A stretch of DNA of 64,000 bases from Escherichia coli (lineage in GTDB: Bacteria; Pseudomonadota; Gammaproteobacteria; Enterobacterales; Enterobacteriaceae): the NCBI RefSeq assembly GCF_036507355.1, contig NZ_AP027877.1; one strand, given 5' to 3'. The translations under genes were made by a program, and so were the position numbers. Positions 26,386 to 27,615 of the stretch are shown here, one piece after another. The notes under the pieces are model-generated. The model was given only the letters and a program-made list of their open reading frames with translations. It was not told the origin of the DNA and made no database searches. The number at the start of each line of letters is the position of its first letter. The stretch's first letter is position 1.

Positions 26386-27615
26386 TTATCCCTGCGGCTG
26401 GTTACTCACCAGCCGCGACATCGTCTCGAGCGAATCCGTTCTTAAGATATAAAGTCGTTTTAGTAACAACGGATTATCCCCCGGTTTTACTTTGCCTTTC
26501 ATGGTTGTCACCGCCAGGTGAAATCCGGCATCGTTTGCTGCCTTCACGGCTTTGTCATTAAATCCGCCAAACGGATACGAAAGATACCAGACATGCGGAT
26601 TAAATTGCGCCAGAGCGCGGCGTGAACGTGCAAAATCAAACAGAATATTGTGCTCACTACGACTCAGTAATATGGGGCGGCGATAACCATCTACCCGATG
26701 CAAAAAATGGGTATGTGACTGAAAATCAAAAACATCGCGAATTTCGTTAAGCTCAGAAACGCTCATAAATTGCAGCGATTTTGGGTTCCACTTCTGCGGG
26801 TGACGTTTGATGCGTGAGGTAACAATAAACGCCGTCGCCTTCATGCCATATTGTTTCAACACAGGATACGCATAGCGGCTCACCGACTTGAGGCCATCAT
26901 CAAAGGTAATCACCACCGCTCGCGCAGGGAGATTGATCTTATTCTTCACGTAACCTTCCAGCTGCACCATGCTCAGTGTCGCGTATCCCCTGTCGCGCAG
27001 CCAGGCCATCTGGTTATTGAAAGCGCGTACCGAGGTGGTCGTCGAAGTATGGCGAAAACGGGTGTTTTCTTCGTCGCGCAGAATATGGTGATAAGTTAGC
27101 ACCGGAAGGCCATTATCGGGTTGGGCATCCAGCGCGCTGATATAGGCCAGTCGATCGCCAATACGGACCTGATACCAGGTTTGATTTAACCTGTCTTTCA
27201 GTTTATGCAAAATCGGGTAGCGCAAATTGTCCGCCAGTACCCCAAATGGCGCACTGCCCACACTCGGCGCGTTATAGACCGGCGTATCTTTCCAGGTAAC
27301 TAAGTTCTGATTACTCAGCGGCTTGTTGAGGTCACCCAAACCGTCTTCAACTTTTTGTCGCCCCTGAACCGGCTCGAGATGCCCTTTATCGATAAACCCT
27401 TTACCAAAGCCAAAATTAAATGCGTAATAACTTGCGGCAGTGGGCTCCACGGCAATGATTTATCCGGCCCGAATATTCCCCACGGTCACCATCTTGTCGC
27501 CAATTTGCGCCCAGACCGCAGCATTTTCGATGGTTTGCATATAACGGGCAGGTAACGCGGCACTGACACTTGCGGTAAACAGCATCAGCAGGAGAATAAC
27601 AGCTTGTTTGTACAT
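26386..27615 (-). pseudogene. yadE: Polysaccharide deacetylase family gene with premature in-frame TAA
   Basis: ATG 27613-27615 encodes a signal peptide ([19 protein letters not shown]...), TAA at 27460-27462 after 51 codons, then the same frame continues as the 354-aa ORF 26386..27450. Confidence 0.7.

Follow-up and report, generated by a model that had tools for sequence, protein, structure and literature searches.

The yadE gene of this Escherichia coli strain carries a genuine and evolutionarily recent nonsense mutation, C154T, that would leave the strain effectively yadE null; we put the probability of this reading at about 90%, with the loss of function inferred. The result is an ordinary textbook nonsense pseudogene of a known, conserved, and dispensable gene, that is, a loss at the level of the strain. 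The features on which the argument is built are the following, given in coordinates of the window (the whole stretch of 64,000 nucleotides that was analysed):

26386 to 27615, minus strand: pseudogenised yadE with its complete frame, 409 codons and the natural stop (aligns without gaps to K-12 b0130; yadI and panD are syntenic)
27460 to 27462, minus strand: premature TAA, codon 52 (CAA in K-12, NZ_OZ197100.1, and NZ_CP178597.1)
27460 to 27615, minus strand: stub ORF of 51 amino acids, signal peptide plus 32 mature residues (ORF list; on record as BED23801.1)
26386 to 27450, minus strand: remainder ORF of 354 amino acids with a GTG start (codon 56) and no signal peptide (ORF list; on record as BED23800.1)
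27559 to 27615, minus strand: codons 1 to 19, predicted Sec signal peptide, cleavage after VSA (read from the sequence)
26518 to 26934, minus strand: carbohydrate esterase family 4 (CE4) polysaccharide deacetylase domain, Pfam PF01522, residues 228 to 366 (profile match), lying entirely 3' of the stop
26002 to 26382, plus strand: panD, convergent neighbour, intact, with its stop 3 nt away from that of yadE (ORF list; K-12 comparison)
27679 to 28119, minus strand: yadI, intact upstream neighbour (ORF list; K-12 comparison)

Read on the minus strand, yadE opens with an ATG at 27613 to 27615, which is followed by 51 sense codons and the TAA. Three codons, Ile-Ile-Ala (IIA), separate this TAA from the GTG at 27448 to 27450, all of them in frame on translation, and the natural stop at 26386 to 26388 is in the same frame as the ATG. 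An earlier note on this DNA had described the ATG, the 51 codons, the TAA, and the in-frame ORF of 354 amino acids, and sequence reading, the ORF list, and translation reproduced each of them. Its statement that the pieces sum to the length of the K-12 protein was likewise correct (51 + 1 + 3 + 354 = 409; the K-12 coding sequence of 1230 nt encodes 409 amino acids). The mutated base is window position 27462, where the coding strand changes from C to T and the plus strand from G to A, and the change from CAA (Gln52) to TAA is a single-base transition relative to K-12 and the nearest complete genomes.

On synteny and protein identity to K-12 YadE, the gene is yadE. In K-12 MG1655, yadE (b0130, 1230 nt, 409 amino acids) is located between yadI and the convergent panD, and the order yadH-yadI-yadE-panD-rpnC in the window is that of K-12. 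The alignment of the window gene to K-12 yadE, proposed by the earlier note as a check, runs without gaps across 409 codons at 98.8% protein identity, with CAA at codon 52 in K-12 and TAA in the window. There are 22 nucleotide differences between the two genes, of which 17 are synonymous, four change an amino acid, and one is the nonsense mutation. The four substitutions (A119V, I150V, S171P, and N355K) also occur in intact alleles. K-12 YadE (NP_414672.1, a putative polysaccharide deacetylase) thus shares with the window its locus, its synteny, its frame of 409 codons, an identical signal peptide, and the CE4 motifs, and it differs in having CAA instead of TAA at codon 52 and in the four substitutions. 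The two closest complete genomes, NZ_OZ197100.1 and NZ_CP178597.1, are 99.6% and 99.5% identical to the window over 1,295 bp, and both have CAA at codon 52. The pair yadE-panD has been listed as a convergent excludon in MG1655 (PMC12288877).

Other parts of the window depart further from K-12. In the rpnC region (24256 to 25728, minus strand), RpnC has 302 amino acids compared with 300 in K-12, the extra residues lying in an EKGI-type repeat. About 560 bp of extra DNA are found between rpnC and panC, within which a second RpnC-like C-terminal fragment (24545 to 24730) is 64% identical to RpnC residues 239 to 298. The yad chaperone-usher fimbrial operon at 15291 to 22485 (yadN, yadV, htrE, yadM, yadL, yadK, and yadC) has only 56 to 88% protein identity to K-12, compared with 95 to 100% for the housekeeping genes flanking it, and is by these identities a strongly divergent fimbrial allele.

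The N-terminus of YadE is laid out like a Sec signal peptide, with MYK as the n-region, a 12-residue h-region, and a c-region ending in SVSA, with cleavage ahead of the following Ala, as read from the sequence. YadE has been predicted to be exported or periplasmic (PMC2672614; 10.1101/2025.02.18.638797). The same sources describe its function as unknown and report genetic interactions that implicate lipid A and envelope pathways, and a yadE deletion is viable in K-12 (PMC2672614). The name given to K-12 b0130, "putative polysaccharide deacetylase lipoprotein", which is also used in some papers, comes without lipobox support, and the N-terminus resembles a signal peptide of the SPase I type. 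As there is no cysteine in the whole protein, a lipobox is absent and the lipoprotein label is unsupported. YadE should also not be confused with the recently described E. coli peptidoglycan deacetylase SddA, which is YibQ (10.1101/2025.02.18.638797).

When the stop is repaired in silico, the protein matches PF01522 (Polysacc_deac_1) with 77 bits (cut-off 23.1, E = 1.5e-21). The CE4 motifs are found as TFDDG at residues 237 to 241 (Asp-Asp), HTHFLH at 301 to 306 (two His), and YPFG at 347 to 350, and the first two align to the corresponding motifs of 4wcj. Judged from its sequence, the repaired YadE is a member of carbohydrate esterase family 4 with putative deacetylase activity. Over residues ~165 to 400, its closest solved structures by sequence are IcaB/PgaB-type CE4 deacetylases of PNAG (poly-beta-1,6-N-acetylglucosamine), namely 4wcj, 6dq3, 4u10, 3vus, 4f9d, and 5bu6. 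For 4wcj, 4u10, 3vus, 4f9d, and 5bu6, E ranges from 4.5e-18 to 2e-8, and the DD motif and the H-x4-H metal-binding motif align with those of YadE. Unlike the IcaB/PgaB-type enzymes, YadE carries about 150 additional residues at its N-terminal end and is encoded outside any pga or ica operon, and the YadE of the window ends ahead of the deacetylase domain. A Pfam scan of the N-terminal 187 residues returned only a sub-threshold SH3_3 match at 112 to 161 (E = 0.048).

The gene appears to have been functional until recently. Except for the stop, the window YadE is identical to an intact allele found on 880 contigs, and dN/dS for yadE is 0.07 relative to K-12 (dS 0.06) and again 0.07 relative to the haplotype of E. 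coli strain 2013C-4282 (dS 0.24). These ratios place yadE under clear purifying selection within E. coli, and the low dN/dS together with the common intact allele implies that the inactivation is recent. Comparable losses have occurred elsewhere. A yadE pseudogene has been reported in strain D37712 of Salmonella Typhimurium ST313 sublineage 2.2 (PMC11018118), and a Shigella boydii form of YadE with 127 amino acids is present on 604 contigs. In both cases, as here, the orthologous gene was lost sporadically, there in host-adapted lineages, although the lesions differ from that of the window in kind and position. The "yadE pseudogene" of Yersinia pestis (PMC11078800) is an unrelated trimeric autotransporter of the same name.

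Almost no other complete genome has the stop. A 61-mer centred on the stop had no exact match in the 5,417 complete RefSeq E. coli genomes with the locus, a test that is blind to carriers with a second nearby SNP. With a 31-mer, for which each 28-base seed must include the T, the allele was found in one of 5,426 complete E. coli genomes, namely in strain 2013C-4282. The earlier note had asked whether orthologues in reference strains have the same stop, and these frequencies, like the CAA in K-12, show that they do not. Strain 2013C-4282 (NZ_CP027579.1, C6996_RS13160) carries the same change from CAA to TAA at codon 52, and PGAP annotates the gene as a pseudogene with an "internal stop", so the identical lesion is already known from a RefSeq genome. 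Its haplotype is about 6% diverged from that of the window (163 mismatches in 2,620 nt), and the lesion must therefore have arisen independently. Across yadI-yadE-panD, 2013C-4282 (L016) is about 6% from both K-12 and the window, with a dS of ~0.25 in yadE, a distance that is unusual within E. coli sensu stricto, and its yadH-panD region may be a cryptic-clade or recombinant segment.

Among assembled public reads, the Logan contigs L004 to L007 have a real TAA that is followed by the ORF of 354 amino acids. Together with the window and 2013C-4282, they define the following carrier haplotypes:

Window and L007: near-identical, one mismatch in 8,949 nt
L005: identical to the K-12 haplotype except for C154T, one difference in 4,100 nt
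L004: K-12-like, 15 differences from K-12
L006: a separate haplotype, 50 to 60 differences from each other Logan or window carrier
Strain 2013C-4282: about 6% diverged from the haplotypes of the window and L004 to L007

Since the carriers lie on at least five diverged haplotypes, C154T arose at least five times. Only contigs with a real TAA are used as evidence here. The stub of 51 amino acids is found on 52 contigs, a count that overstates the allele, as L008 to L013 are only contigs whose ends happen to fall at codon 51 or no more than two bases from it, three of them with an intact "CA". More generally, several public contigs break one base before a variable position, which is nt 154 in the case of Q52* and nt 256 in that of R86*: L009, L010, and L011 end at yadE nt 153, L008, L012, and L013 at nt 155, and L022 and L023 at nt 254 to 255. 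Such breaks hint at mixed populations of intact and stop alleles, as an assembly graph would split there, and contigs that end at the variable base inflate the counts of stub peptides.

The recurrence of one nonsense mutation on five diverged haplotypes (window/L007, L004, L005, L006, and 2013C-4282) raises the question whether the loss is adaptive or mutationally favoured, with codon 52 as a hotspot or a target of parallel selection. An adaptive loss could consist in relief of the excludon, with less yadE transcription reaching into panD, or in the removal of an envelope-modifying activity, and the reported convergent arrangement of yadE and panD (PMC12288877) is in line with the former. As a control, the stub peptides expected from other single-transition nonsense sites in yadE were looked up and the contigs counted. 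Next to the 52 contigs for Q52*, these numbered 49 for Q84*, 151 for R86*, 32 for Q87*, 25 for Q103*, 38 for W108*, 27 for Q145*, and 49 for W147*, whereas YadE fragments of arbitrary other lengths were found on 1 to 9 contigs each. R86* was verified as a real change from CGA to TGA on at least four haplotypes, lying 3, 8, 13, 38, and 97 mismatches away from K-12. When R86* and Q84* were put to the 31-mer test in their K-12-haplotype form, no complete genome had either, numbers that are too small for comparing sites. Evidently, the transition-to-stop sites of yadE are all hit repeatedly in a huge public sample, and codon 52 is unremarkable among them. Moreover, codon 52 lies in no known methylation or deamination motif, and the integrity of yadE in over 99.9% of the complete genomes, together with its strong constraint at the protein level, fits sporadic, short-lived losses and not sweeps. 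With seven other sites on 25 to 151 contigs, a hotspot or parallel selection at codon 52 was rejected, and we consider an adaptive or mutationally favoured loss very unlikely. It is hardly probable in particular that the repeated change from Gln52 to a stop reflects selection (for shutting off the panD excludon, or for removing the deacetylase in particular hosts) and not the depth of sampling; if it did, yadE would be a recurrent target of adaptive loss.

In the preferred reading, a sporadic and inactivating nonsense mutation, ribosomes that start at the native ATG would terminate after 51 residues, more than 100 residues ahead of the catalytic domain. The stop at residue 52 precedes the PF01522 match (228 to 366) and all catalytic motifs (237 to 350). 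The product of 51 residues, a signal peptide of 19 and a mature part of 32, would be exported and then broken down, or would have no activity, and the IcaB/PgaB-like CE4 deacetylase domain (residues ~168 to 400) would not be made. The loss would probably be neutral or near-neutral. Since no further gene lies on the yadE strand ahead of the convergent panD, the stop should have no polar consequence for an operon partner. Reduced read-through from yadE could in principle alter the interference with panD, which is speculation. The C-rich and G-poor windows found around yadE nt 477 to 600, downstream of the stop, could act as Rho entry sites, and a promoter and terminator consensus scan gave nothing informative for yadE.

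The gene might nevertheless still function, either through a restart at GTG56 (as a split gene or a cytoplasmic deacetylase) or through readthrough of the UAA. GTG56 is the nearest in-frame restart codon and lies 9 nt past the stop, which is near enough for termination-reinitiation, and the ORF that it opens keeps the whole CE4 domain with unchanged motifs. Its SD-like pairing of -3.3 kcal/mol is weak compared with the -5.4 to -12.0 kcal/mol of five neighbours (panD, aceE, lpd, dksA, and yadI); however, the native yadE start pairs just as weakly (-2.4 kcal/mol), so that the weak pairing at GTG56 is on its own insufficient to exclude a restart. A restart is thus possible in principle, although re-initiation at this codon is probably inefficient. 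What argues against a functional product is its location. The earlier note had claimed that a product restarted past the stop would lack its signal peptide, and the signal-peptide layout was indeed located at codons 1 to 19, upstream of the TAA. The restarted protein would also lack residues 20 to 55 of the mature N-terminal region and would remain in the cytoplasm, away from its presumed envelope substrate. Given the predicted periplasmic location (PMC2672614; 10.1101/2025.02.18.638797), a cytoplasmic YadE would presumably be useless, with both the compartment and the substrate being putative. Nor is the stop kept across related lineages: it is absent from 5,425 of the 5,426 complete genomes, and those that carry it are single lineages, scattered over haplotypes unrelated to one another. 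As the stop is conserved in no clade, nothing suggests that a split architecture is being maintained, and programmed stop-codon recoding or a conserved split gene finds no support. Of the three stop codons, UAA is the one at which E. coli terminates most efficiently, which counts against readthrough. Taken together, a yadE that still functions has little credibility, and the probable loss of function proposed in the earlier note is supported, as an inference, by a catalytic domain that lies wholly 3' of the stop.

A sequencing or assembly error, with C as the true base and an undamaged yadE in the living strain, is the least probable reading, even though only one base is involved and only one complete genome shares the allele: the read-based Logan assembly of the same haplotype (L007, run SRR32181686) also has TAA at codon 52, and not the CAA that the earlier note had named as a refuting outcome; the allele was assembled in at least four other lineages, one of them a RefSeq complete genome; and the change is a substitution outside homopolymers and outside Dam (GATC) and Dcm (CCWGG) sites. 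L007 and the window may derive from a single isolate; the support from L007 would then be read-level and not independent biological support. The exact stub is also on record as BED23801.1 (VEE46_35690), among other entries, and the exact remainder as BED23800.1 (VEE46_35680), both on a contig of 4,643,937 bp. Moreover, of 55 genes of K-12 that were compared with the window, 53 are intact and show no error-like frameshifts, yacH being the only disrupted gene other than yadE. On the strength of L007 and the four other haplotypes, we therefore regard the lesion as real and an assembly error as unlikely.

Compared with K-12, yacH (41435 to 44517, plus strand) is disrupted twice, by a stop at its codon 156, where the aligned translation reads ENPQ*VQNLG, and by a 1.23-kb insertion at 42436 to 43664. 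The latter is an IS3-family element with imperfect terminal inverted repeats of 38 nt and a DDE-transposase ORF at 42834 to 43646.

For annotation, the finding means that the ORFs at 27460 to 27615 and 26386 to 27450, which GenBank names as hypothetical proteins (BED23801.1 and BED23800.1), should be merged into a single yadE pseudogene. As an effective natural yadE null, the strain could serve as a ready-made comparison for studies of the putative envelope function of YadE. In a broader sense, yadE is strongly conserved and yet sporadically knocked out at many sites in E. coli, Shigella, and Salmonella, a combination of conservation and sporadic loss that fits a conditionally dispensable envelope enzyme.
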